Assembly (NCBI GenBank): GCA_046483285.1
Contig: JAWODN010000121.1
Coordinates: forward strand, 5,899-69,898
DNA: 64,000 bases
Direction of reading: 5' to 3'
From: Candidatus Aminicenantes bacterium
GTDB taxonomy: Bacteria > Acidobacteriota > Aminicenantia > Aminicenantales > Aminicenantaceae
The first letter of the stretch is position 1; every line of letters starts with the position of its first letter. Of this stretch, positions 39,632 through 51,454 are shown one piece after another. Both the position numbers and the translations under genes were made by a program. The notes under the pieces are model-generated. The model was given only the letters and a program-made list of their open reading frames with translations. It did not search any database and had not been told where the DNA came from.

Positions 39632-40669
39632 ATGATGAAACGCGATGACAAAGGGTATTTGACCTACTGGAATGATGCCGGCAAAAAACGGGTTTTTTCC
39701 GGAATTCAGCCGACCGGAGAACTTCATATCGGTAATTATCTGGGAGCCATTTCCAACTGGGTGGCTTTTCTGGATGATTACGAGTGCTTTTTCTGCATTG
39801 TCGACCACCACGCCGCCACCATCGAATATGACCCCGCGGACATGCCCCGCCGTGTTTTTAACGCGGCTGTGGCCAATATGGCGGCCGGCCTGGATCCGCA
39901 GCGCTGCACTCTGTTCGTCCAGAGTGAAGTCCCGGAACATACCGAACTCGCCTGGATTTTCAACACGGTGACGCCTTACGGCGAACTGTCCCGCATGACC
40001 CAATTCAAGCAGAAATCTCAGCAGTATCAGCAGAACGTGAATGTGGGGCTGTTCACTTACCCGGTGCTGCAGGCAGCGGATATCCTGCTCTACAAAGCCA
40101 GTGCGGTCCCGGTGGGAGAAGACCAGGTTCAGCATATCGAACTGGCACGCGAAATCGCCCGCGGCTTCAACAACCGCTTCAGTGACGTGTTCCCGGAATG
40201 CCAGGCTTATCTGACCGAAGCCAAGCGGATCATGGGTTTGGACGGAGAAAAAAAGATGTCCAAAAGCCTGGGCAACACCATCGGCATCCTGGAGCCGGCG
40301 GAAAGCATCTGGAAAAAACTGGGGCCCGCCAAAACCGACGAGCGGCGGCAACGCAGATCCGACCCCGGCGTCCCTGAGGATTGCAATATATACATGAGTT
40401 ACCACCGCTATTTTTCACCTGAAAAAGACCTGATATGGGTCCGGGAAGGATGCACCGGTGCCTCCATCGGCTGTTTGGAATGCAAAAAAAAGCTGCTGGA
40501 AAACATGGACCGGGCCCTGGCTCCCATCCGCCGGAAAGCCGCCGCATATCACGCCGACCCCGGATTTGTGCACGGCGTGCTCACGGAGGGCGCGAAGAAA
40601 GCCAAAAAGATCGCGGAACAGGTCATCGCCGAGGTCAAACAGGCAATGGGACTGGTGCGCCTAAAGTAA
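39632..40669 (+). CDS. trpS: tryptophan--tRNA ligase
   Basis: 345 aa. HIGH-type motif GELHIGNYLGA and KMSKS motif (KKMSKSLGN). Confidence 0.9.
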   Translation: MMKRDDKGYLTYWNDAGKKRVFSGIQPTGELHIGNYLGAISNWVAFLDDYECFFCIVDHHAATIEYDPADMPRRVFNAAVANMAAGLDPQRCTLFVQSEVPEHTELAWIFNTVTPYGELSRMTQFKQKSQQYQQNVNVGLFTYPVLQAADILLYKASAVPVGEDQVQHIELAREIARGFNNRFSDVFPECQAYLTEAKRIMGLDGEKKMSKSLGNTIGILEPAESIWKKLGPAKTDERRQRRSDPGVPEDCNIYMSYHRYFSPEKDLIWVREGCTGASIGCLECKKKLLENMDRALAPIRRKAAAYHADPGFVHGVLTEGAKKAKKIAEQVIAEVKQAMGLVRLK

Positions 40670-40677
40670 ACAGAAGA

Positions 40678-41520
40678 CTAATCCCGGCCGGAGGGCATCT
40701 GGCGTTTTTTGACTATGCGGTAGGTCAACGGACTCGGCATAAATCTCAAAGCGAATCGAACGATTTTATTGTTGAATCCCGGAACGCACACCGCCTTTTT
40801 TTTCCGGGCGCACTTCATTGATATTTTCACCACCTCTTCGGCATCCATGGCTTTCATGATCCCCTTGCTTTTATATATCCTCTCCTCATCCAAACCCATG
40901 CGCTGATGGAATTCAGTGCGGGTTATTCCGGGACAGAGCGCTTGGACATAGACTCCCGTGTCTTGAAGCTCCAGAAAAAGCGATTCAGAAAAAAGTTTCA
41001 CCATGGTTTTCGAAGCCGCGTAAACCGCATTCAGCGGATAGGGGGTGAAAGCAGCGGTTGATGAAACATTGATGATCATTCCATCGCCGGCGGTGATCAT
41101 CTGCGGAAGCGCAGCTTGAGTTAAACGCATAACCGCCAATTCGTGCACATAAAGCATATCTTCATATGCGGAAAAATCTCCCCGGTCGAAATAACATTGC
41201 GTCCCGAATCCGGCGTTGTTGACCAGTATTTTCAAATCCTTCTTTTTTTGAAGTTTTCCGGCCAGCTCTTCGATCTCTTCTCTCTTAGAAAGATCTCTTG
41301 TTTCCGTTTCGGCATTAATCTCATAATCCCGGCTCAACCGGCGGGCCATAGATTCAAGCTTGGTCCTGTTGCGTCCTGTCAGAATCAAATGATATCCCTG
41401 TTCAGCGAACTCCCGTCCGAAAGCTTCGCCGATTCCGCTGGTGGCTCCTGTGATGCAGGCCCATTGGCCAGCATTGGACTCCATGTCGATTTCTCCTTTC
41501 ATAAAGGAAATGAACCGCAC
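40678..41520 (-). CDS. classical short-chain dehydrogenase/reductase
   Basis: 280 aa. Cofactor motif ITGATSGIGEAF. NNAG. Catalytic YAASK. Confidence 0.8.
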   Translation of the reverse strand: MRFISFMKGEIDMESNAGQWACITGATSGIGEAFGREFAEQGYHLILTGRNRTKLESMARRLSRDYEINAETETRDLSKREEIEELAGKLQKKKDLKILVNNAGFGTQCYFDRGDFSAYEDMLYVHELAVMRLTQAALPQMITAGDGMIINVSSTAAFTPYPLNAVYAASKTMVKLFSESLFLELQDTGVYVQALCPGITRTEFHQRMGLDEERIYKSKGIMKAMDAEEVVKISMKCARKKKAVCVPGFNNKIVRFALRFMPSPLTYRIVKKRQMPSGRD

Positions 41521-41651
41521 CCGGAAGGCTGAACTTTCCAGGCCGCTTCAGTCATAACTGAATTTCATACAGCCTTACCGTGACCCTTCTTCCGGTGGTC
41601 ATGGTTCGTGGTGTACGGCACCCCGGTCAAAGCCGATTGATCCAAAACCGG

Positions 41652-42554
41652 TTATTTTTTATACAGATAAATGGAATGCTCTTCTCCATCCCAGGATTCA
41701 ACGCTTTTGTATGCGATCTCCCGGTCTTCCCACCCGACGATATTATAGTTGTGGGAAACCACCCGCGCCCCGTCCTTAAGCTGCTTTTCCAGGATAGGCC
41801 GCATCAGCTCGTTGGATTCCGGAAGCAGATACATGGTCACCACCGTGGCTTCGGAATAATCGGATTTAGTGGCGTCCTCCTTGCGGAACTCAACCAGGGC
41901 TTCCACTCCGGCCTCCCGGGCACTCCGGCGGGCTCCCTGCAGCTTAACCGGATCCAATTCAATCCCCACTCCCCGGGCTCCGAACCTTCTCGCCGCCATG
42001 ATCACGATCCGGCCGTCCCCGCAGCCGATATCATAAACCACATCATTCTCATCCACTTCCGCCATCAGCAGCATGGATTCCGCCACTCCCAGCGGCGTAG
42101 GGACATATGGAGCCAGATCCACCGCATCTTCCCGGCCGTGGGAGCCGTCATACAGCTCGAGCTGATCCTCTTCATCATAGCGAAAGGAAAAAGGGAAACC
42201 GGGGCCCAGTTTATAACGCACCCAAACATCCCCCTTGAGGAATGATATGTACAATTCTTCATCAGTAGAATAGCGGTGAACTTCATCCGCCTGGATGGTT
42301 TTTTCCTCGGGCTCTTCATCCCCGGAACGGGGCTTGATTTTATAAGTTATGCTTTTGTCTGTGACATTGCGGACGGTGACCTCAGGAAGATTGACAGGTA
42401 TTCGATCAAAATCATCCCGGTTCTCCTCGACGGGCTTTTCCGGAATCTCATTTTGCCCGCTTCCGCCGCAGCCCGAGGTTAAGACAAAAATGCAGGAAAG
42501 AAAAAGCCAAAAAACATACAATAACCGGACGGAAGCTTTCCTCTGATGTCTCAT
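41652..42554 (-). CDS. lipoprotein with class I SAM-dependent methyltransferase domain
   Basis: 300 aa. Signal plus lipobox LTSGC. About 130-aa N-terminal domain. Motif I VYDIGCGDGRIVIMAA and an acidic post-I residue (IELD). Confidence 0.55.
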   Translation of the reverse strand: MRHQRKASVRLLYVFWLFLSCIFVLTSGCGGSGQNEIPEKPVEENRDDFDRIPVNLPEVTVRNVTDKSITYKIKPRSGDEEPEEKTIQADEVHRYSTDEELYISFLKGDVWVRYKLGPGFPFSFRYDEEDQLELYDGSHGREDAVDLAPYVPTPLGVAESMLLMAEVDENDVVYDIGCGDGRIVIMAARRFGARGVGIELDPVKLQGARRSAREAGVEALVEFRKEDATKSDYSEATVVTMYLLPESNELMRPILEKQLKDGARVVSHNYNIVGWEDREIAYKSVESWDGEEHSIYLYKK

Positions 42555-42641
42555 TTTTTTATTTTAGATGGATTTCTGAAATTATTCAACCGGGGCCGGT
42601 CAAAAGGCACAGCGGATTGATCCTCAAAACGGCTTGCCGAA

Positions 42642-43934
42642 TTATTCCGGACGCCAATCCTTCATGCTTTCAAAAACGTCTTGAAGAATGGCCACACAAC
42701 GGTCCATGTGTTCCTTGGTGTGGGCGGCGGAAACGGAAAGTCTCAGGCGGGTTTTATTTTTGGAAACCGCAGGATAGGTCACAACGCCGCTATACAATCC
42801 CTTTTGTTGGATCCGGCGGCTGATTTCGCGCAACCGAAGATCGCTTCCCGCCATGACCGGGATCACCTGGGATTTTGTGCTGCCGATATCCAACCCGGCT
42901 TCCTTCAAACGGGTATGCATATAGCGGGTATTGTCCCACAGCCTTTCCCGGTTGGAGGGGTCTTTTTGGAAAAGGTCCAGGGCTTTCAATATGCCGACCG
43001 CTGTATGCGGCGCCATGGCGCAGGAAAAAACATAGGAACGGGCGAACATTCTCAAAAAAGTCATCAGTTTCTTTTCCCCGGCTGCGTACCCCCCGATGGC
43101 ACCGAAGGACTTGCTGAAAGTTCCGATGGCGATATCCACCTGATCTTCCAATCCGTAATGTTCGGCCACGCCTCCCCCTTTTTTTCCAAAGACCAGAGAC
43201 GCATGAGCTTCATCCACTAATATTTTAGCGTTATATTTTTGACAAACAGGAACGATCTCAGGCAGATTGGCCAGATCGCCGTCCATGCTGTAAACTCCTT
43301 CCACACAGACGATAACTCTCTTGGCCTGGAGGCTTTTCAGGACTTTATCAAGATGGCGGGGATTGTTATGAGAAAACACCTTAATCTCCGCGCCCGAGAG
43401 CCTCACTCCGTCATAGATGGAAGCATGGGAGAGAATATCCAAAACGGCGATATCACCCGGCTTGAGCAGGCTGGAAAGAATACCGACATTGGCCCCGTAG
43501 CCGGTGGAGAAAACAATCGCCGCATCTTTGTTTTTAATATCCGCTATCCCGGCCTCCAACTCCAGAAGGGGCTGGGAATATCCGCTCAACAAAGGGGCGG
43601 ATACAGCGCCCGTTCCGAATTTTTTCACAGCGTCCTGAACAGCCCGAATGACTTCCGGATGAAATGAATACCCGAGGTAGTTGTAAGAACAAAAATTGAG
43701 AAACCGGCGGGTGCGGCCGGCATTGTTGTCATAAACTTCAAATTCCGGTTTGGGTCCTGATATCATGGGCTGGGCATAAATCATGTACTGCTTCCGCCTG
43801 GCATCCGCGACATATTCCCAAAAATAATCAGCGACCTCAAATAAATCTTCCCCCCGGAATTCAGCAAAATCGACCATGGTGTGATGATCGCAGTTTACTT
43901 TTTTCTCCTTAAGATCCTTGGGCTGCAGTGTCAT
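42642..43934 (-). CDS. alpha-oxoamine synthase family PLP enzyme (serine palmitoyltransferase / 2-amino-3-ketobutyrate CoA ligase-like)
   Basis: 430 aa. Substrate-binding motif FCSYNYLGY. GVYSMDGDLANLPEIV. DEAHASLVFGKKGGG. PLP lysine in GTFSKSFGAIGG. Confidence 0.8.
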   Translation of the reverse strand: MTLQPKDLKEKKVNCDHHTMVDFAEFRGEDLFEVADYFWEYVADARRKQYMIYAQPMISGPKPEFEVYDNNAGRTRRFLNFCSYNYLGYSFHPEVIRAVQDAVKKFGTGAVSAPLLSGYSQPLLELEAGIADIKNKDAAIVFSTGYGANVGILSSLLKPGDIAVLDILSHASIYDGVRLSGAEIKVFSHNNPRHLDKVLKSLQAKRVIVCVEGVYSMDGDLANLPEIVPVCQKYNAKILVDEAHASLVFGKKGGGVAEHYGLEDQVDIAIGTFSKSFGAIGGYAAGEKKLMTFLRMFARSYVFSCAMAPHTAVGILKALDLFQKDPSNRERLWDNTRYMHTRLKEAGLDIGSTKSQVIPVMAGSDLRLREISRRIQQKGLYSGVVTYPAVSKNKTRLRLSVSAAHTKEHMDRCVAILQDVFESMKDWRPE

Positions 43935-44007
43935 TAATTCCTCGCGGTGTCAGGTTGATTTTCCCGTTTGCTTATACCACAGGAAATAAGCCGGGGTCAA
44001 ATCCAGG

Positions 44008-47000
44008 CTATATTTGAAGAGGGTCTTCCGCCAGGATACGGTCGAAAGTCTGGAGAAGCACGTCCGCGTTTTCTTCATTGAAAACCAGAGGCGGCTTGAT
44101 TTTGATCACGTTGCGGTCCGGTCCGTCCGTGCTGACAAGAATTCCTTCCTCCCTCATTCTCTCAGCCGCGTAGACAGCCTGGGCGGATGCGGGCTTGAAC
44201 GTCTCCCGTTCCTGAACCAGTTCCACTCCGATAAAAAGTCCCCTTCCCCGGACGTCTCCGATCAACGGATATTTTTTCTTCAAGCGTTCCAGCCCGGCCA
44301 TTATCCTGCTTCCGGTCAGCTGTGCATTTTCCTGAAGATTCTCCTGTTCAATGACGTCCAGAACCGCCATGCCGGCGGCGCAGGCCACGGGACTTCCGCC
44401 ATATGTGTTAAAGTATTCCATGCCCCCGGCGAACTTTTCCGCGATGCGGGGAGTGGTCACAACAGCTGCCAGGGGAAAACCATTGCCCATGGGCTTGCCC
44501 AGAGTGACGATATCCGGAATCACATTCTGCGTTTCAAAACCCCAAAAACAGCTCCCCGGCCTTCCGAACCCAACCTGGACTTCATCCGCAATGCAAACCC
44601 CGCCGGCCTTCCTGATGATCCGGTAGGCTTCCTCCAGATAACCGGGCGGAAACACAATCTGGCCTCCGCAGCCCGGAAGCGATTCCGAAATAAAAGCAGC
44701 CAGCCCCCTACCCCGCTCCTGAATCCTTTCGACGGCGTCCCGGACATGAACGGCGTATTTTTTCCCGGCCTCACTGTCGCCGTACCGGTAAGGCCCGCGG
44801 AAAAGATCGGGCATAACCACGGTTTGAGTATGAGGGGGTTTTCCCCGCCCCCCCGGGCCGTTGAATTTATAAGAGCTGATATCGATCAAAGAACCCAAGT
44901 TCCCATGGTAAGCTCCCTCCTCCGCAACGACATCCTGTCCCCCGCTGAAGCAGCGTGCCATTCGAAGGGCCAGGTCGTTGGCCTCACTTCCTGAATTGAC
45001 AATGGTGCACACCTGAAGGCCGCCGGGAAGCCGTTCCGCCAGCCGGCGGGCGTAGCGGACCACATCATCGTGCAGGTAACGGGTGTTCGTATTCAGCACG
45101 CTCAATTGCTTATTTACGGCATCAACCACACGCGGGTGCTCATGCCCGACATGGGGAACATTATTGACGGCGTCCAGGAATGCCCGGCCAGTGTGATCGT
45201 AAAGAAAACATCCGCTGCCCCGGACGATTTTGAGCGGCTTCCTGTAGGAAACACTTAAAGCCCCGAGAAGGTATTTTTTCCGGAGACGCAATATTTCCGG
45301 AACCGTAAGGGAATCATCCTTGATCTCTTCCTCAGGGAGGCCGGCGATGAGATTCGGATCCGGGCACAGACTCAACCACACATCTCTCTCGTCCGCCCGG
45401 GCCACACCCGGGAAATCTCCCGTGCGGCCAAGCATATCCATGATCAATTGAAAATGAAGATGAGGGGCCCACCCCCTGTTCTCGGATGAATCCCCCATCC
45501 ATCCAAAAATCTCCCCTTTTTTTATCACCTTCCCCGGATACACGCCTTCCAGAGAAGAAGCGCTGAGATGTCCGTAAAGAGTATAAAACTCAATGTCTTC
45601 GCCGCCGGCCCGGTGTTTGAGGATTATGGTGGGCCCATAATCCAGCTCACCGCGGTTATTCCGGAAGCTATGCACCTCACCGTCTAACGGCGCTTTCACC
45701 GGGCTTCCCGGCGGCATAAACACGTCTAAACCCAAATGAACGGTGCGGTCCTGAAAAAGATCACTGGTATACACCAGCCGGGCTTCGTCATAACGGCCGA
45801 TCCCGATGGTTTCCCCGGCTTTTTCCCGCCACGCCTTCATTTTCCGGTGCATGAGTTCCGCCGGTGTTAAACCTTTTTCATTTCCCAGCCAGCGGCTTCC
45901 TATGCTGAGATCAAACACAGTCCGTCCGGCTTGGTTCAAGGGAGGAACGGTGATCGGGCCGATTTCCGAACTCCGCAACTTCAGCCATTCCTCAATTCGG
46001 CTTGTGCGGGGGCAGGGGGGATAGCCGCAGGCGGCGCGGAAGGAATACCATGCGAAATCCGGAGATATCCGCTGCATTCGCTCCAGGAGCTTCCATACCG
46101 GATTCTCAGAAACAGACAGATAGGTGTTTCCGGGGTGAAGGGTTTTTTGGTAAGCGGAAATACAGACGCTCATCAAAAGCCTCAGCTGGATCAGGTTATA
46201 AAGGACCTTCAATTCTTTTTCCTGAAACGGCCGGCGGGAATGATATCCCGCCGCCGCCCGGCAAGCCGCCGGCAATGGATTCCGTTTGTCCAGCATCACA
46301 TAAGCGCAGACCACCGCCGCCTCCGCCAGTTTATACGTATAAATCATATCCCCGAAATCAATGATCCCCGCGACCCGCATATCTCCGAAGGATCCGGGCT
46401 CCCGGGAAGGAGGAGAAATGATAATATTGTGATCGTTACCGTCATTATGAATGAGCCCCATGGCCAGCCCGGCCTTTTCCAACCCGCCCTCCGACCGGAT
46501 CCGGCGGCTGAATTGTTCCACCAGGCCGGCTTTTTTCTTGTCCGTGATATGCCTTTTGAATTCATCGATCACAGAAAAGGCGTTTTTTAAATCCCATATC
46601 AATTCTCTGCGTCCGGCCGGATGAGAAAAATCCGCCAGAGACCTTTCCATGTCCCCGAAAAACTCCCCCACCCGAAAAAGCAGGTCCGAAGAGTGGGGGT
46701 TGACCTCCGCCAAAACTTTCCCGGGGAGATAACTCACCAGCCTGACAAAATGAACCCGGCCTTCTTGATTTTCCAACGTTTCCATATCCCGGCCGGATAC
46801 AGCCGGAATAAGCCGCGGACAGGAGCCGGCGGTCATTTTTTTATTCAAATGTTCCATCGCCTTGTTCTGAAGATCCAGGATGTCTTGTTTTTCTTCCGGA
46901 TTGGCGATCTTCAGCACAAATTCGCCTTTGTTTTCTTCCTTCAGATAAAAATTCTGATCCCGCTCTGACGGAAGCGGCTCCGCCTCCGCTTCTAATCCGT

Positions 47001-47115
47001 ATAAACACCGGGCGGCGGCCCCGGCCTCTTCCCGGCTGAATGAAGGCGCGCTTCCGGCTGTGGATTTAAAAACTCCGTTCTTCATGTGATTTCTCCTTAT
47101 CTTTATATTTTTCAC
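44008..47115 (-). CDS. three-domain fusion: APH-type (hydroxylysine/homoserine kinase II-like) phosphotransferase + M23 peptidase domain + class-III aminotransferase-fold PLP domain
   Basis: 1035 aa. N-terminal [12 protein letters not shown]...VLKIAN, catalytic loop [14 protein letters not shown] and IIDFGDM (APH fold). Middle domain has [23 protein letters not shown] (HxxxD) and YGHLS...[10 protein letters not shown] (HxH), i.e. intact M23 motifs. C-terminal domain has [11 protein letters not shown] and [11 protein letters not shown] (class-III aminotransferase fold, the family of ethanolamine-phosphate phospho-lyase). Confidence 0.75.
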
Positions 47116-47224
47116 AAATAATGATTGGATGTAAATCGGGAATTGCGGCTCGTGATCCGCGAATGGGGAAGTAAAGACTTTGATTGACGGTTTTTTTTGA
47201 CCATATCCCCGTAATATGATAATT

Positions 47225-47300
47225 TATATAATAATTTAGCCTGGATAATGAACGGGCCGGGATGGCCGCAGATGCGGGACGCAGGGCCTAAAGAGGAAGA
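47225..47300. repeat. short copy of mosaic repeat modules A and F
   Basis: TTTAGCCTGGATAATGAACGGGCCGGGATGGCCGCAGATGCGGGACGCAGGGCC is similar to 38370-38420 and 60125-60170. Confidence 0.55.
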
Positions 47301-47429
47301 AAAATCCGACAAAAAAAATTAAATAAAATTATTTCCACTATTCCGGGAACCTCCAGGGAAGAGCCTTGGAATTCCTTAAATATCGACCTCAGCGCGGTTC
47401 AATCCAATTTTCAATATCTCCGTTCGCGC

Positions 47430-48965
47430 ATGCCCGGCGAAGCAGTGTTTTATTCAGTGCTGAAAGCGGATGCTTACGGCCACGGGCTCCGCGAGATCGC
47501 CCTGGCATTAACCCAGGCCGGCTGCCGCCGCTTTGCTGTGGAGTCCCCGCAGGAAGGAATCCGGCTGCGAAACGAAGGGATCTCCTCCGAAATCCTGCTC
47601 ATGAATCCTATTCCTGATTGGATGGCGGAAATATGCGTTCAGAATGACTTAAGCGTCTCGGTCATTCACCGCTCCATTCTCACCCCCTTGGAAGAAGCCG
47701 CCCGGTCCATGGATAAAACCTGCCGGATTCATCTCAACGTCAATGTCGGACTTCACCGCATGGGTATCGCGCGGTCCAGGCTGCTGCAGGTGGCCCGGAA
47801 AGCCGAAAGAATGCCTCACTTGATTCTGCAGGGGATATTCGGGCAGCCCCGGACTCCGGATACCGCTCCACAGGCCTACCGGATGCTCAAAGACAGCTAT
47901 CATCAGTTAATCCAGAAGAACATCCGGCCCCTCAGCCTTCATTTCGCCAACAGCGCCGCTTTCTTGACATGTCCCGAAACCGCCGCGGAAGGAGCCCGGC
48001 TGGGCATTCTTCTATACGGGGTGCTTCCCATGGAAATCTACAAAAAGAAATCATCGCCGCCTCCTTTGAAACCGGCCATGAGCCTGGATACGGAATTGGT
48101 GCAGATCCGCGATCTCCCCCGCGGCAGCCGGTTTGGTTACCATTCTCACAAAAAAACAGATAGGGATATGCGGATCGGGGTGATCCCGCTGGGCTATTAT
48201 CACGGTCTCGACCGGAAAATGGCCCAAGGAGGATACGCACTGCTGCATGGGCGTAAAGCCTTTTTCCAAGGAAGCATTTCCATGAACGCCTCCACTCTCG
48301 ACATAACCGGAATCCCCGGCGGGAAAATCGGAGACCGGGTCACCGTCATCGGAAAGCAGGGGAATCAAACCATAGACATCAATCAACTGGCAGTCCAGGC
48401 CGGGACTATAGCCGCTGAACTCATGATGCGGCTGGGAGGAAATTTAGTCAAAACATACAGGCTGTCGGAAGGGGCTCCCTCCTATGGAATGCATATTGAC
48501 AAAGACCGCTTCGACGTCGATATCCTGTATTTACGCAGCGCCAAATCCCTTCCGGATTGGCTCAGCCTCTATGACATCGTTGGTTTTATCCAGCAGCAGA
48601 TGGGAGAATTCAGCGAACCGAGAGATGCTGTGGATTACGCCATCGGCTATGCGCTGTCCGCAGTGCGGCCGGGAAAAGGATTCATTTTTCTCTGCGTATC
48701 CGGGAAACGTATCATAGGCGCTTCCGTGTGCGTTCAAACCGAAACCCACGGTTTTATCCCGAAAAACATTCTTTTGTATCTATGTGTTCACCCCGAATTC
48801 CGGGGGAAAGGATTGGGAAAAGGACTGCTGCGGGATACCCTGACCGCCGGGGGCGGCGACTGTAAAGTCCACATTCAACCCGGCAACCCCGCCGCCGGTT
48901 TTTTTGAAAAAATGGGATTTGAAAAAAAATATCTTGAATACCGTTTTTCAAAAGGAGACACTTGA
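47430..48965 (+). CDS. alr: alanine racemase fused to a C-terminal GNAT acetyltransferase domain; the conserved N-terminus extends upstream of the first canonical start
   Basis: 511 aa. PLP-lysine motif VLKADAYGHG. C-terminal GNAT motif A HPEFRGKGLGKGLL. The in-frame upstream sequence back to the stop at 47289-47291 encodes LNIDLSAVQSNFQYLRSR, which aligns to the Alr N-terminus, but contains no ATG, GTG or TTG. Confidence 0.75.
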   Translation: MPGEAVFYSVLKADAYGHGLREIALALTQAGCRRFAVESPQEGIRLRNEGISSEILLMNPIPDWMAEICVQNDLSVSVIHRSILTPLEEAARSMDKTCRIHLNVNVGLHRMGIARSRLLQVARKAERMPHLILQGIFGQPRTPDTAPQAYRMLKDSYHQLIQKNIRPLSLHFANSAAFLTCPETAAEGARLGILLYGVLPMEIYKKKSSPPPLKPAMSLDTELVQIRDLPRGSRFGYHSHKKTDRDMRIGVIPLGYYHGLDRKMAQGGYALLHGRKAFFQGSISMNASTLDITGIPGGKIGDRVTVIGKQGNQTIDINQLAVQAGTIAAELMMRLGGNLVKTYRLSEGAPSYGMHIDKDRFDVDILYLRSAKSLPDWLSLYDIVGFIQQQMGEFSEPRDAVDYAIGYALSAVRPGKGFIFLCVSGKRIIGASVCVQTETHGFIPKNILLYLCVHPEFRGKGLGKGLLRDTLTAGGGDCKVHIQPGNPAAGFFEKMGFEKKYLEYRFSKGDT

Positions 48966-48968
48966 ATC

Positions 48969-50036
48969 ATGAATAAACTCGAAAAGCAATATCAAAAAGA
49001 TAACTTAACCTGGGACCAATGTGCTGAAATTTACGAACGGCAAATCGTCGGAGGACACCCCGACATCGCCGCTTTTGAAAATTTTGAAGAAGATTTTTTA
49101 GATAAAATGCTGCGGTTTCTCGGGAAAAGCCAGAAGCGCCCCCTTAAATTAATGGATCTCGGGTGCGGATCCGGACGGCTCCATCTGCGATACGCCGCCA
49201 AGACTATGAAACCTTCCCGCAGCGAAAAAAACGAGGCTCTGCAAAAATTCCGGTATAACCGCCCATTTCTCGCCTATGACGACATCCTGGCTGAATCATT
49301 ATCCGAAGTCTGGGGAATTGATTTCTCCAAAAAAATGATCGAATTGGCCCGGAAAAAAATGAATGCGGCCGGTCTGGACAGAGGACTTTCCATAAAAACT
49401 CTTTTCAAGCAGGGATCCGCTTTCCAGCTGGAACCCCAGCCTAAACAATTTTTGCCGATTGCGGTCTGCCTGGTCAATTCCATCAGCGTGATGCAGGGTC
49501 CGGAAGGGGCGCAAAGTTTATTTAAAGCGATGCGGCGCGCCGTGGAACCGGCCGGCGGAATCGCCTTAATCGCCAATTATCAAAGTGAATTCGTTGAATC
49601 GCATGCTTTGGGTCAGTATGAATCGACTATGGACGTATCCGGCCAGCCTTGGTGGATGAAACCGGACACCTATGCCTCCGGCTATAAACTCATCCCCAAA
49701 AAATACAAACGTTCTTACTGCCGCAATCCCCGCCTGGCTGTGGATGTCTATGATGAAAAACAGCATCTGGTGGAAAAGGATTTTATCCTGGAAAGAGATC
49801 CGGAAAGAACCCGGCAGACCGTGGAAACCGGCCATATCCGCACACACACCAACTATCAATCCCATTGGTACAGTTATGCCCAGATGGAAGAATGGGCCCG
49901 TGAACATTGGGGAAAAAATATTTACCACTTTCCCACCGCAGATTTGGATATGATCAGGGCGGACGCGGCTCAGTTCACCATTCTGGATTCCGGAGATTGG
50001 CTTAAATCGCTTTTCCAGCGCTGGAAATTGACTTAA
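48969..50036 (+). CDS. class I SAM-dependent methyltransferase
   Basis: 355 aa. Motif I LMDLGCGSGRL. Confidence 0.5.
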   Translation: MNKLEKQYQKDNLTWDQCAEIYERQIVGGHPDIAAFENFEEDFLDKMLRFLGKSQKRPLKLMDLGCGSGRLHLRYAAKTMKPSRSEKNEALQKFRYNRPFLAYDDILAESLSEVWGIDFSKKMIELARKKMNAAGLDRGLSIKTLFKQGSAFQLEPQPKQFLPIAVCLVNSISVMQGPEGAQSLFKAMRRAVEPAGGIALIANYQSEFVESHALGQYESTMDVSGQPWWMKPDTYASGYKLIPKKYKRSYCRNPRLAVDVYDEKQHLVEKDFILERDPERTRQTVETGHIRTHTNYQSHWYSYAQMEEWAREHWGKNIYHFPTADLDMIRADAAQFTILDSGDWLKSLFQRWKLT

Positions 50037-51454
50037 TGCCCCATTCCTGGCTTCAATATCTTATCATCCTTCTGTATTTCATTTTCATCGTCGCTAAAGG
50101 TCTGCGCCGCTCCCGTGAGATAAAGGATACGGACGATTTTCTGGTCGCCGGGAGGCGGACCGGATGGTTTATATTGATGTGCACCATGGGAGCCACCGTC
50201 CTGGGGGGCGGCGCGTCGATCGGTGCTATCGGCCGGACTTATGAGTGGGGAATCCTCATGCTGGTTATTTCGACGGGATGGTATCTCCACTTTATTATTT
50301 CCGGACTTTTTGTGGCTCCGTATTTCCGCAAAGCCAGGCTGTATACCGTGGCCGGTTATTTCGGCCATCGATATGGAGAAAAAAGCCGGTTTTTGGCTTT
50401 TCTTCTTTCTCTCTTTTTTTCCGTCGGTATCCTGGGCGCTCAAATGGTGGCCTTTGGAAAAATCATCACCACCATGATACCGGAAATGTCCTATCTGGCC
50501 GCGGTCCTGGTTGGCGGAGGCATCGTGATTCTTTACAGCACCGCCGGGGGATTGCTGGCTGTGATTCACACGGATGTTTATCAGTTCATTATTCTTGTCG
50601 CCGGATTTTTTTTCACCGTCCTGCTTTGCGCTCCTGATCTTATCCGGGCCGGGGAAGCTGTCTCCCAAGCCGTGCCGGATTCGTTTTTCCAAATCGACGG
50701 CGGGATGGGGTGGCTTTTTCTGATTACCACTTTTTTGGCTTTTTTTCTGGGAGAAACGTTTGCCCCGGGATACGCCACCCGCTACTGCATCGGTAAAAAT
50801 GTCAAGGAAACCAAAAAAGGAATCGTCGGCGCCGGGGTCTTCCTCGCCTTCACTTTCCCGGTCATCCTCTTTTTTATCGCTCTCTACAGCCGGCTTCACT
50901 TTCCTGCAATAGATCCGGAAATGGCCCTTCCCAAAACGATTATCCAATTGAATAATCCAGTCATCGGAGGGATTATTATTGCGGCCCTGATGTGCGCAGT
51001 GATGTCATCTGCGGATTCCATCCTCAATTCCGCCACCGCCATATTTGTCAAGGACCTCTATGAAAAATACCTTTCCAATTCCCGGATGATGCAGAAAAGG
51101 GGATTGATTATCGCCCGCTTCAGCTCGGTGGGGCTGGGATTGCTGGGCATTTCCATGGCTCTGGCGCTTCCGAATGTCATCGACCTTCTTTTATTGACCT
51201 ATAACCTCTGGGCACCCGGAATCATCCTCCCTGTGCTGATTGGTGTTTTCTCCAGACGCCGTTCACAGCAGCATAACCTCTTGATCTTCAGCACGATGCT
51301 GCTGTCAACAACCGGGACGATTTTCTATATGGGCACAGCCTACGCTGAGGCGGTCCAGCCGAGTGTGTTCGGGGTGGTGATCTCTTGTGTCATCTATTTT
51401 GCCGGCCGGGTGCTTATGAAAATCATCCGGGCGGACCAGTCTTCCCCTGAATGA
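50036..51454 (+). CDS. sodium:solute symporter family transporter
   Basis: 472 aa, about 13 TM helices. N-terminal region FLVAGRRTGWFILMCTMGATVLGGGASIGAIG is typical of SSF. Confidence 0.75.
   Translation: MPHSWLQYLIILLYFIFIVAKGLRRSREIKDTDDFLVAGRRTGWFILMCTMGATVLGGGASIGAIGRTYEWGILMLVISTGWYLHFIISGLFVAPYFRKARLYTVAGYFGHRYGEKSRFLAFLLSLFFSVGILGAQMVAFGKIITTMIPEMSYLAAVLVGGGIVILYSTAGGLLAVIHTDVYQFIILVAGFFFTVLLCAPDLIRAGEAVSQAVPDSFFQIDGGMGWLFLITTFLAFFLGETFAPGYATRYCIGKNVKETKKGIVGAGVFLAFTFPVILFFIALYSRLHFPAIDPEMALPKTIIQLNNPVIGGIIIAALMCAVMSSADSILNSATAIFVKDLYEKYLSNSRMMQKRGLIIARFSSVGLGLLGISMALALPNVIDLLLLTYNLWAPGIILPVLIGVFSRRRSQQHNLLIFSTMLLSTTGTIFYMGTAYAEAVQPSVFGVVISCVIYFAGRVLMKIIRADQSSPE

Follow-up and report, generated by a model that had tools for sequence, protein, structure and literature searches.

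Four neighbouring genes around an unusual alpha-oxoamine synthase in Candidatus Aminicenantes: a possible lineage-specific juxtaposition of separately promoted units

The stretch of DNA analyzed here (64,000 nucleotides, hereafter the window) comes from a Candidatus Aminicenantes bacterium (GenBank assembly GCA_046483285.1, contig JAWODN010000121.1, positions 5,899 to 69,898 of the forward strand) and carries on its minus strand four neighbouring genes, which an earlier prediction made from the sequence alone had read as one operon making or degrading a 2-amino alcohol, possibly of the sphingoid type. Our analysis favours another reading, to which we give about an even chance: four genes, each with a promoter of its own, that lie side by side in one lineage and form no dedicated four-gene operon, in which an alpha-oxoamine synthase (AOS) and a short-chain dehydrogenase/reductase (SDR) would constitute a lipid-base pair and a large fusion protein would be an independent catabolic enzyme. 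The four open reading frames (ORFs) named in the original prediction were all recovered, and Pfam confirmed the domains proposed for each of them. Read along the minus strand, they are the fusion (44008..47115; ORF start GTG 47115, 1035 aa), which joins a kinase (APH), an M23 peptidase and a class-III pyridoxal phosphate (PLP) enzyme resembling phospho-lyases; the AOS (42642..43934, 430 aa; Pfam Aminotran_1_2), which is similar to serine palmitoyltransferase (SPT) but falls into a clade of its own and not with canonical SPT, KBL or BioF; a class I S-adenosylmethionine (SAM) methyltransferase (MT; 41652..42554, 300 aa; Pfam Methyltransf_31/25/11), predicted to be a lipoprotein or otherwise exported; and a classical SDR (40678..41520; ORF start GTG 41520, 280 aa; Pfam adh_short, 154.3 bits).

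The order fusion-AOS-MT-SDR turned out to be confined to a narrow clade. Among the comparison loci (designated here by L-numbers), it was kept only where the AOS was at least 86% identical to that of the window, namely in L169-L172 (AOS 87% and fusion 69% identical), in L184 (87% and 66%), where the fusion and the AOS are followed by an opposite-strand histidine kinase gene, and in GCA_964505785.1, for which the conserved region is split over two contigs (L182 and L004). The flanking trpS gene and the divergent racemase/GNAT, methyltransferase and SSF symporter genes were kept along with it. In L004, an opposite-strand histidine kinase gene lies between the AOS and the MT, and fragments coding for AMP-binding (235 aa) and ketoreductase (KR, 216 aa) proteins lie, again on the opposite strand, between the MT and the SDR (L004:4144-5473, minus strand); these fragments may be remnants of an acyl-activating/reductase gene. 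Because opposite-strand genes separate them, the AOS, MT and SDR cannot be co-transcribed in this genome. Where the AOS was 71-76% identical to that of the window (L001, L002, L005, and L007), its neighbours were unrelated.

The association of the genes was followed in two wider surveys. First, we compared 88 loci around AOS homologues by tblastn and neighbour clustering. The fusion was present in none of them (0/88), an MT orthologue was found near the AOS only in L004, in L007/L008 (divergent, 45% identical) and in L005 (3.3 kb upstream), and an SDR orthologue only in L004. Second, we clustered 84 fusion loci, consisting of 80 metagenome loci with fusions 42-59% identical over almost their full length and of L169-L172. 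No real family was a neighbour of the fusion in more than 8 of these 84 loci, the single cluster found in nine being an antisense artefact of the ORF caller. Apart from the window lineage, only one lineage among the 80 metagenome loci had an AOS next to the fusion. Elsewhere the fusion is a stand-alone gene, flanked by secA and fusA in L185, from another Aminicenantes genome, and by genes for a sulfatase and a GFO/IDH oxidoreductase in L186, and it is hence not an obligate partner of the AOS.

The intergenic regions are also consistent with separate transcription. By ORF coordinates, the fusion-AOS, AOS-MT and MT-SDR distances are 73, 87, and 131 bp. The likely genuine start codons of the fusion and the SDR are ATG 47085 and ATG 41484, each with an AAGGAG ribosome-binding site 7 nt upstream; the latter yields a protein of 268 aa, as in the SDRs of relatives, and moves the MT-SDR gap to 167 bp. 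The genes are thus co-oriented, as had been predicted, but gaps of 73-167 bp are nothing especially short for an operon. Before the AOS, we found a promoter-like element on the minus strand (43971..44000) made of TTGACC (44000-43995), 18 nt and TATAAG (43976-43971). The two hexamers and most of the spacer are unchanged in L171 and L184, and the 5' leader that follows is also nearly the same in these three species, whereas the remainder of the fusion-AOS gap cannot be aligned among them and includes an indel of about 85 nt. A second element on the same strand precedes the MT (42561..42589), with TTGAAT (42589-42584), 17 nt and TAAAAT (42566-42561), the -10 hexamer ending 6 nt before the ATG. 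L171 and L004 have TTGCAT at the same spacing from TAAAAT, and the block is conserved in L004 although the upstream gene there is the opposite-strand histidine kinase. Before the SDR, only the ribosome-binding site was conserved. TTGACC occurs once on the coding strand of each of the three gaps, compared with 52 sites in 128 kb on both strands (Poisson estimate for three of three gaps, about 7e-5), and a longer motif shared by the gaps, TTTGACCSSG, was not significant (2 vs 1.1 expected). Since a generic promoter scan performed no better than chance (6 matches vs 5.4 expected from shuffled sequence), we relied on the conservation of intergenic blocks. Those before the AOS and the MT, taken as predicted promoters, fit separate transcription units, and to this extent the sequence points to separate transcription, in part at least, of genes that had been thought to share a transcript. 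An Rfam search of positions 40000-48000 revealed no riboswitch or other RNA family.

The AOS translation contains both motifs on which the original prediction was built, FCSYNYLGY (residues 81-89) and GVYSMDGD (residues 213-220), and its catalytic set is intact, with the stacking His in SHAS at 169, DEAH at 241 and the PLP-binding Lys in GTFSK at 271. An N-terminal extension was considered as an unusual feature and rejected, the solved SPT chains in the PDB having about 400-440 residues and a length of 430 aa being normal. Assignment to either SPT or KBL, as proposed originally, did not hold, the protein scoring below every NCBIfam curated cut-off. Its best model was gly_Cac_T_rel (361.9 vs 535.4 bits), and the other scores were 357.2 vs 426.45 bits for bioF, 341.1 vs 640 for SPT-CFB, 334.1 vs 500 for SPT-BetaP, 279.2 vs 670 for SPT-AlphaP, 341 vs 460 for the KBL model PRK06939 and 287.3 vs 493 for a second KBL model. 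Among solved structures, the SPT of Sphingobacterium multivorum (3A2B) was the best match with 279.8 bits, followed by Thermus BioF/KBL (261.1 bits), KBL 7V58 (241.9 bits), the SPT of Sphingomonas paucimobilis (~235 bits) and E. coli BioF (186 bits).

We then placed the AOS in a neighbour-joining tree of 33 sequences (362 columns, 200 bootstraps). The references were taken from E. coli K-12 (including kbl), from annotated plasmid loci (a Sphingomonas CerR-ACP-SPT locus, ACP being acyl carrier protein, a Vibrio kbl-tdh locus, and hemA and bioF genes) and from PDB alignments. With 100% bootstrap support, the window AOS grouped with proteins from metagenome-assembled genomes (MAGs) of Aminicenantes, Spirochaetota, Bacteroidales and Smithella, which were 67-90% identical. 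A sister clade, also at 100%, contained sequences of Gemmatimonadota, Vicinamibacteria, Polyangia, and Planctomycetota that were 45-50% identical to the window AOS. Together with the AOS of a Bacteroides xylanisolvens plasmid, the two clades were united at 91%, apart from the BioF pair (94%), the E. coli/Vibrio KBL (100%), the alphaproteobacterial SPT (100%) and the Bacteroidota-type SPT group (63%). At the deep nodes through which the window AOS would be linked to SPT or KBL, support was 3-51%. Judged by its sequence, the AOS is a member of a distinct and well-supported clade that extends across several phyla and lies outside BioF, KBL, and canonical SPT.

The active-site loop, which in ALAS and SPT lines the acyl and amino-acid pocket, sets the same proteins apart. 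It reads S-A-P-L-L-S-G-Y in the window clade and G-S-P-x-L-S-G-T in the sister clade, vs G-[STV]-R-x-x-[NCSA]-G-T in SPT, KBL, and ALAS, with Asn at the sixth place in SPTs. GSR-x-LNGT was found in four canonical SPT-type sequences, which are the two solved bacterial SPTs and two AOSs adjacent to fusions, and it is absent from the window AOS. The AOS of E. coli KE47, which groups with the canonical SPT-type sequences, has GSRMANGS; this unannotated 390-aa protein (L174, NZ_CP141089.1 2919717-2923793, filed as a plasmid, 4.9 Mb) joins the alphaproteobacterial SPT with 99% bootstrap support. The Arg-to-Pro and Asn-to-Ser changes are common to the window and sister clades. Compared with the SPTs of S. 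multivorum (3A2B) and S. paucimobilis (2JG2/2JGT), the window AOS has the fold, the catalytic set (GTFSKS, SHASI, DEAH) and a similar length in common, but is only about 36-37% identical to them and has SAPLLSGY in place of the SPT loop GSR-[FM]-LNGT, so that Arg and Asn are both lost. The lost Asn, N100 in S. paucimobilis SPT, is the one in contact with the serine aldimine. Because this pocket-lining loop is altered, a different substrate pair is plausible for the AOS, and the alteration suggests that its amino acid is perhaps not serine.

One rival explanation is that the AOS is simply the 8-amino-7-oxononanoate synthase (BioF) with which the organism makes biotin, the remaining three genes having no relation to it. 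Its loop ends in SGY, as does that of E. coli BioF, the bioF model comes close to being its top NCBIfam match, many of its orthologues were named 8-amino-7-oxononanoate synthase by JGI, and about 70% identity combined with variable neighbours is housekeeping-like. However, its score stays below the curated bioF cut-off, the tree separates it from the BioF pair and its sister clade is found in lipid clusters. Moreover, no bio gene was recognized in the families that recur as neighbours in the 88 AOS loci, and the genes annotated at ~28-57 kb of the window include none for biotin synthesis, no tdh and none for an ACP or an acyl-CoA ligase, the last two of which the original prediction had proposed to look for nearby. 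We give this explanation a slim chance. As for KBL, the AOS could act as KBL in a threonine/glycine-aminoacetone route in which the SDR would reduce aminoacetone to 1-amino-2-propanol and the fusion would phosphorylate it and eliminate the phosphate to give propionaldehyde. In the mycobacterial aminoacetone-utilisation microcompartment, an APH-type kinase and a class-III phospho-lyase do indeed carry out the last two steps, and the better KBL model gave 341 bits. Against this route stand the failure of both KBL models to reach their cut-offs, the position of the AOS outside the KBL clade, the replacement of the KBL loop ASVRFICGT by SAPLLSGY and the gene context, reference kbl genes adjoining tdh whereas no threonine dehydrogenase gene is adjacent to the window AOS. 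It appears to us very improbable. On cut-offs, tree and gene context, we rejected membership of the AOS in either KBL or BioF.

The reductase has the motifs of a classical SDR, namely TGATSGIG at 24 (TGxxxGxG), NNAG at 101 and YAASK at 167 (YxxxK). Its best NCBIfam model was the mycolate reductase NF040690 (175 bits vs a cut-off of 380). In L044 and L071 (Acidobacteriota/Vicinamibacteria), an SDR 34-38% identical to that of the window stands directly upstream of the AOS, and the L044 protein had the same best curated model (171.5 bits). CmrA-type mycolate reductases reduce the beta-keto group of a lipid. Since the scores of both SDRs are far below the cut-off and Aminicenantes are without mycolic acids, the match is to be read as one of subfamily, not of function. 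We infer the substrates and the coupling of the two enzymes: the AOS most likely catalyses the condensation of an amino acid and a long-chain acyl thioester to a 2-amino-3-keto lipid base, and the SDR (mycolate-reductase/COG0300 type) would plausibly reduce the ketone of this product to an amino alcohol. Of the sphingoid-type synthesis proposed originally, what stands is an SPT-like enzyme, by its best solved match, that recurs beside an SDR; its membership in the SPT clade does not. The AOS-SDR pair is plausible, and it is the sole part of the locus with recurring, though thin, support.

A long-chain product is favoured mainly because the genes around the sister-clade AOS form a lipid context. 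The neighbours there were an acetoacetate-decarboxylase-like protein (22 loci), an unknown protein of 338 aa (20 loci) and a DAGK_cat/YegS lipid kinase (19 loci), and more rarely a CDP-alcohol phosphatidyltransferase (14 loci), a PlsC-type acyltransferase (8 loci) and a zinc-dependent alcohol dehydrogenase (6 loci). This conserved cluster, observed in L022-L088 of Gemmatimonadota, Vicinamibacteria and related MAGs (e.g., L047:5834-9882 and L074:10001-11862), has the look of an amino-lipid or sphingolipid-type pathway not yet described. The Caulobacter Spt-bCerS-CerR ceramide pathway (PMC11087976) shares its core logic with the window pair, an AOS step followed by keto-reduction, but its CerR is NDUFA9-like and the window reductase a classical, mycolate-reductase-type SDR, and the window has no bCerS- or CerR-like gene. 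Indeed, no ACP, CerR or bCerS gene adjoins the AOS in the window, and searching with the CerR of the Sphingomonas SPT locus gave weak matches in L068 and L002 only, with none in the window. BT_0972 of B. thetaiotaomicron, a candidate 3-ketosphinganine reductase, reduces 3-ketodihydrosphingosine (3-KDS) in vitro (PMC11087976), and from this a eukaryote-like order, AOS and then reductase, may exist in bacteria. Our literature search found nothing specific on Aminicenantes and sphingolipids, nor on SPT in Gemmatimonadetes.

The fusion passed the NCBIfam cut-off of PRK06148 (1213.5 vs 1128 bits, residues 21-1030), a family labelled only as 'hypothetical protein', and all three of its Pfam domains (APH, Peptidase_M23, Aminotran_3) were present. 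The kinase motifs HNDGNDHN at 223 and DFG at 253 are intact, as is the PLP-Lys motif TLGK at 871 of the phospho-lyase domain. In PDB comparisons, the C-terminal domain matched human ethanolamine-phosphate phospho-lyase (6TOR) with 460.7 bits and an Arthrobacter phospholyase (5G4I) with 334.2 bits, the next match being dialkylglycine decarboxylase with 199.6 bits. By these similarities, the domain is a member of the amino-alcohol-phosphate phospho-lyase family (AGXT2L1/2 type), clearly above transaminases, and the relevance of phospho-lyases to this locus, as suggested in the original prediction, was thereby upheld. The kinase domain searched alone returned generic APH and homoserine-kinase matches only, with no clue to the substrate. 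In the most fitting reading, this one protein is sufficient for a catabolic sequence of two steps, in which a 1,2-amino alcohol would first be phosphorylated and phosphate and ammonia would then be removed in a PLP-dependent elimination; the family of the protein is clear from the cut-off, and an amino alcohol would be its substrate. Reportedly, Veiga-da-Cunha et al. described such a kinase-then-lyase logic for hydroxylysine kinase and ammoniophospholyases in J Biol Chem in 2012. The vertebrate enzymes AGPHD1/HYKK with AGXT2L1/ETNPPL and AGXT2L2/PHYKPL share this logic with the window fusion but are without M23, whereas the fusion has such a domain at its centre, its zinc ligands intact. Passages of PMC12138971 and PMC5714238 cite Veiga-da-Cunha et al. 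(2012). In our literature search, nothing specific on bacterial kinase/phospho-lyase fusions was found. The M23 domain of the fusion (residues ~445-560) has kept its zinc ligands in HLGLD at 460 (HxxxD) and HLH at 552 (HxH), which is puzzling for a peptidase domain in a metabolic enzyme, here a cytoplasmic kinase/phospho-lyase.

The MT had been proposed to give an N- or O-methylated product, which now appears less likely. Its last 140 residues matched the NCBIfam archaeal protein-lysine N-methyltransferase NF041081 with 136.3 bits (cut-off 200, model positions 1-136 of 142), and its N-terminus consists of a charged MRHQRKASVR, a hydrophobic stretch and LTSGC. The Cys of LTSGC is matched by a Cys in the aligned sequences of L171 and L004 and is absent in L007 and L005; a lipobox regular expression (after the PROSITE pattern) matched an earlier Cys, in FLSC. 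By these features, the MT looks like a putative exported lipoprotein, from a family nearest to protein-lysine methyltransferases and probably without a role in a cytoplasmic pathway. Both its predicted export and the fact that its closest model is one of protein-lysine methyltransferases make a tailoring role for a cytoplasmic small molecule less likely. To our knowledge, SAM is not available outside the cytoplasm, so that an exported SAM-dependent enzyme is odd. MT family members with N-terminal signal or lipoprotein sequences and a catalytic domain resembling archaeal protein-lysine methyltransferase were also found in L095:1225-2433, L107, L121, and L150. The export argument against a tailoring role is not absolute, since the ceramide reductase CerR (NADH-type) is itself periplasmic (PMC11087976).

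Several observations weigh against the reading of separately promoted neighbours with a lipid-base pair. The window and sister AOS clades were joined with 59% bootstrap support in the neighbour-joining tree, and the case for a long-chain substrate of the window AOS comes solely from the context of these relatives, 45-50% identical to it. The AOS-SDR recurrence comes from a single independent lineage, and SDR genes are abundant in general. No terminator-like hairpins were found on the coding strand in the three gaps, so that read-through co-transcription of the co-oriented genes is possible. Furthermore, the fusion-AOS adjacency was kept in three species-level lineages despite fusions at 65-69% identity, and the second fusion-AOS adjacency mentioned above argues for some functional link. 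It was found in one unrelated lineage of 60% GC (L111, L113, L114, and L156), in which the AOS is convergent with the fusion and the ORF ends are 41 bp apart. These AOSs were 35-38% identical to that of the window and had 463-479 bits with SPT-CFB, vs ~370 with bioF, and 349.8 bits with 3A2B. In L113:85-5843, a 382-aa GNAT gene, the fusion and the convergent SPT-like AOS are followed by MacB/ABC transporter genes and genes for exported proteins of unknown function. bCerS belongs to the GNAT superfamily and may be related to the L113 GNAT protein. In PMC11087976, bCerS is called simply an acyltransferase.

These adjacencies could reflect a synthesis-and-turnover module, in which the AOS and SDR make a sphingoid-type base and the fusion degrades this base or the phosphoethanolamine head group of the lipid, the genes being linked though separately promoted. 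Two independent fusion/AOS adjacencies, one of them with an SPT-like AOS and a GNAT gene upstream of the fusion, speak for it, as does the closeness of the phospho-lyase domain to ethanolamine-phosphate phospho-lyase. Yet a single lineage besides that of the window had an AOS near the fusion among the 80 metagenome loci, none of the 88 AOS loci had the fusion, and the latter stands alone in other Aminicenantes and Acidobacteriota genomes. In L113, the convergent fusion and AOS are not co-transcribed, and by a rough estimate the probability that one extra adjacency arises by chance among ~60 lineages is ~0.1. We consider such a module unlikely, and a link of the fusion to sphingoid/phosphoethanolamine metabolism is a live minority hypothesis. 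The one-pathway operon of the original prediction, with all four products making or degrading a methylated 2-amino alcohol, fares slightly worse and is improbable in our view. Co-orientation, gaps of limited length free of hairpins and an order kept in the closest relatives agree with it, and the chemistry is coherent on paper, leading from AOS through ketoreductase and kinase to phospho-lyase. But opposite-strand genes break the order in L004, the internal promoter-like blocks are conserved, conservation does not go beyond the genus level and the MT is predicted to be exported and nearest a protein methyltransferase model, and a pathway that makes and then destroys an amino alcohol would be futile. 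The single-transcript operon was rejected as the default reading, and lineage-specific juxtaposition is the reading that we prefer.

The surroundings of the four genes were also inspected. Downstream, the convergent trpS gene ends 8 bp from the SDR stop codon. Upstream, an AT-rich divergent spacer of 344 bp (47086..47429, no strand) separates the fusion from a plus-strand block (47430-51454) that codes for a 511-aa fusion of an alanine racemase with a GNAT domain at its C-terminus, for a methyltransferase of 355 aa and for an SSF symporter. The divergent arrangement of the fusion and the racemase/GNAT block was kept in L169, L171, L182, and L183. This block could be the real functional partner of the fusion, for example in taking up and processing an amino compound.

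Other loci with AOS genes deserve mention. Orthologues 62-72% identical to the window AOS were present in L009-L021 and L060, from MAGs labelled Eubacteriales, Bacteroidales, Tannerellaceae, Bacteroides, Spirochaetota, and Smithella; this spread of taxa suggests either horizontal transfer or contigs that were wrongly binned or labelled. In five Bacteroidales-type loci of this set, an AraC/DUF6597 regulator gene lies directly upstream of the AOS. L002:445-3473 (minus strand) codes for a second, divergent AOS (413 aa) beside an Rce1-like gene and a gene of the NAD-dependent epimerase family, which is weakly CerR-like, and since this contig has a second AOS, more than one AOS paralogue per organism is possible. 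Finally, a Thioclava plasmid (L176, NZ_CP149927.1) codes for a class-III aminotransferase-fold protein (~845 aa), a methyltransferase, an ACP, an AOS (~545 aa), an AMP-binding protein, a ketosynthase and a phosphopantetheinyl transferase (PPTase), and is a natural-product-type locus that combines the enzyme classes of the window.

As an operon, the locus would be ordinary, its four annotated enzyme genes adjoining one another in a single genus-level clade. The boldest proposal that the data allow, and one that we regard as a long shot, is that the fusion serves in bacteria to dispose of sphingoid-type amino alcohols or the phosphoethanolamine head groups of sphingolipids, by phosphorylation and subsequent loss of phosphate and ammonia, as an alternative to sphingosine-1-phosphate (S1P) lyase, that two or more unrelated lineages have it in genetic coupling with an SPT-like synthase, and that the window AOS represents a new subfamily with an S-[AS]-P-x-L-S-G loop, making a non-serine long-chain base in Aminicenantes, Gemmatimonadota, and Vicinamibacteria. 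We know of no cultured representatives of the Aminicenantes. If the AOS makes a long-chain base, predicted sphingoid-type lipid synthesis would extend to this group, by means of an enzyme that is ambiguous in SPT-based searches. The PRK06148 fusion family is widespread, and its repeated position beside SPT-like genes provides a concrete and testable hypothesis for its substrate.

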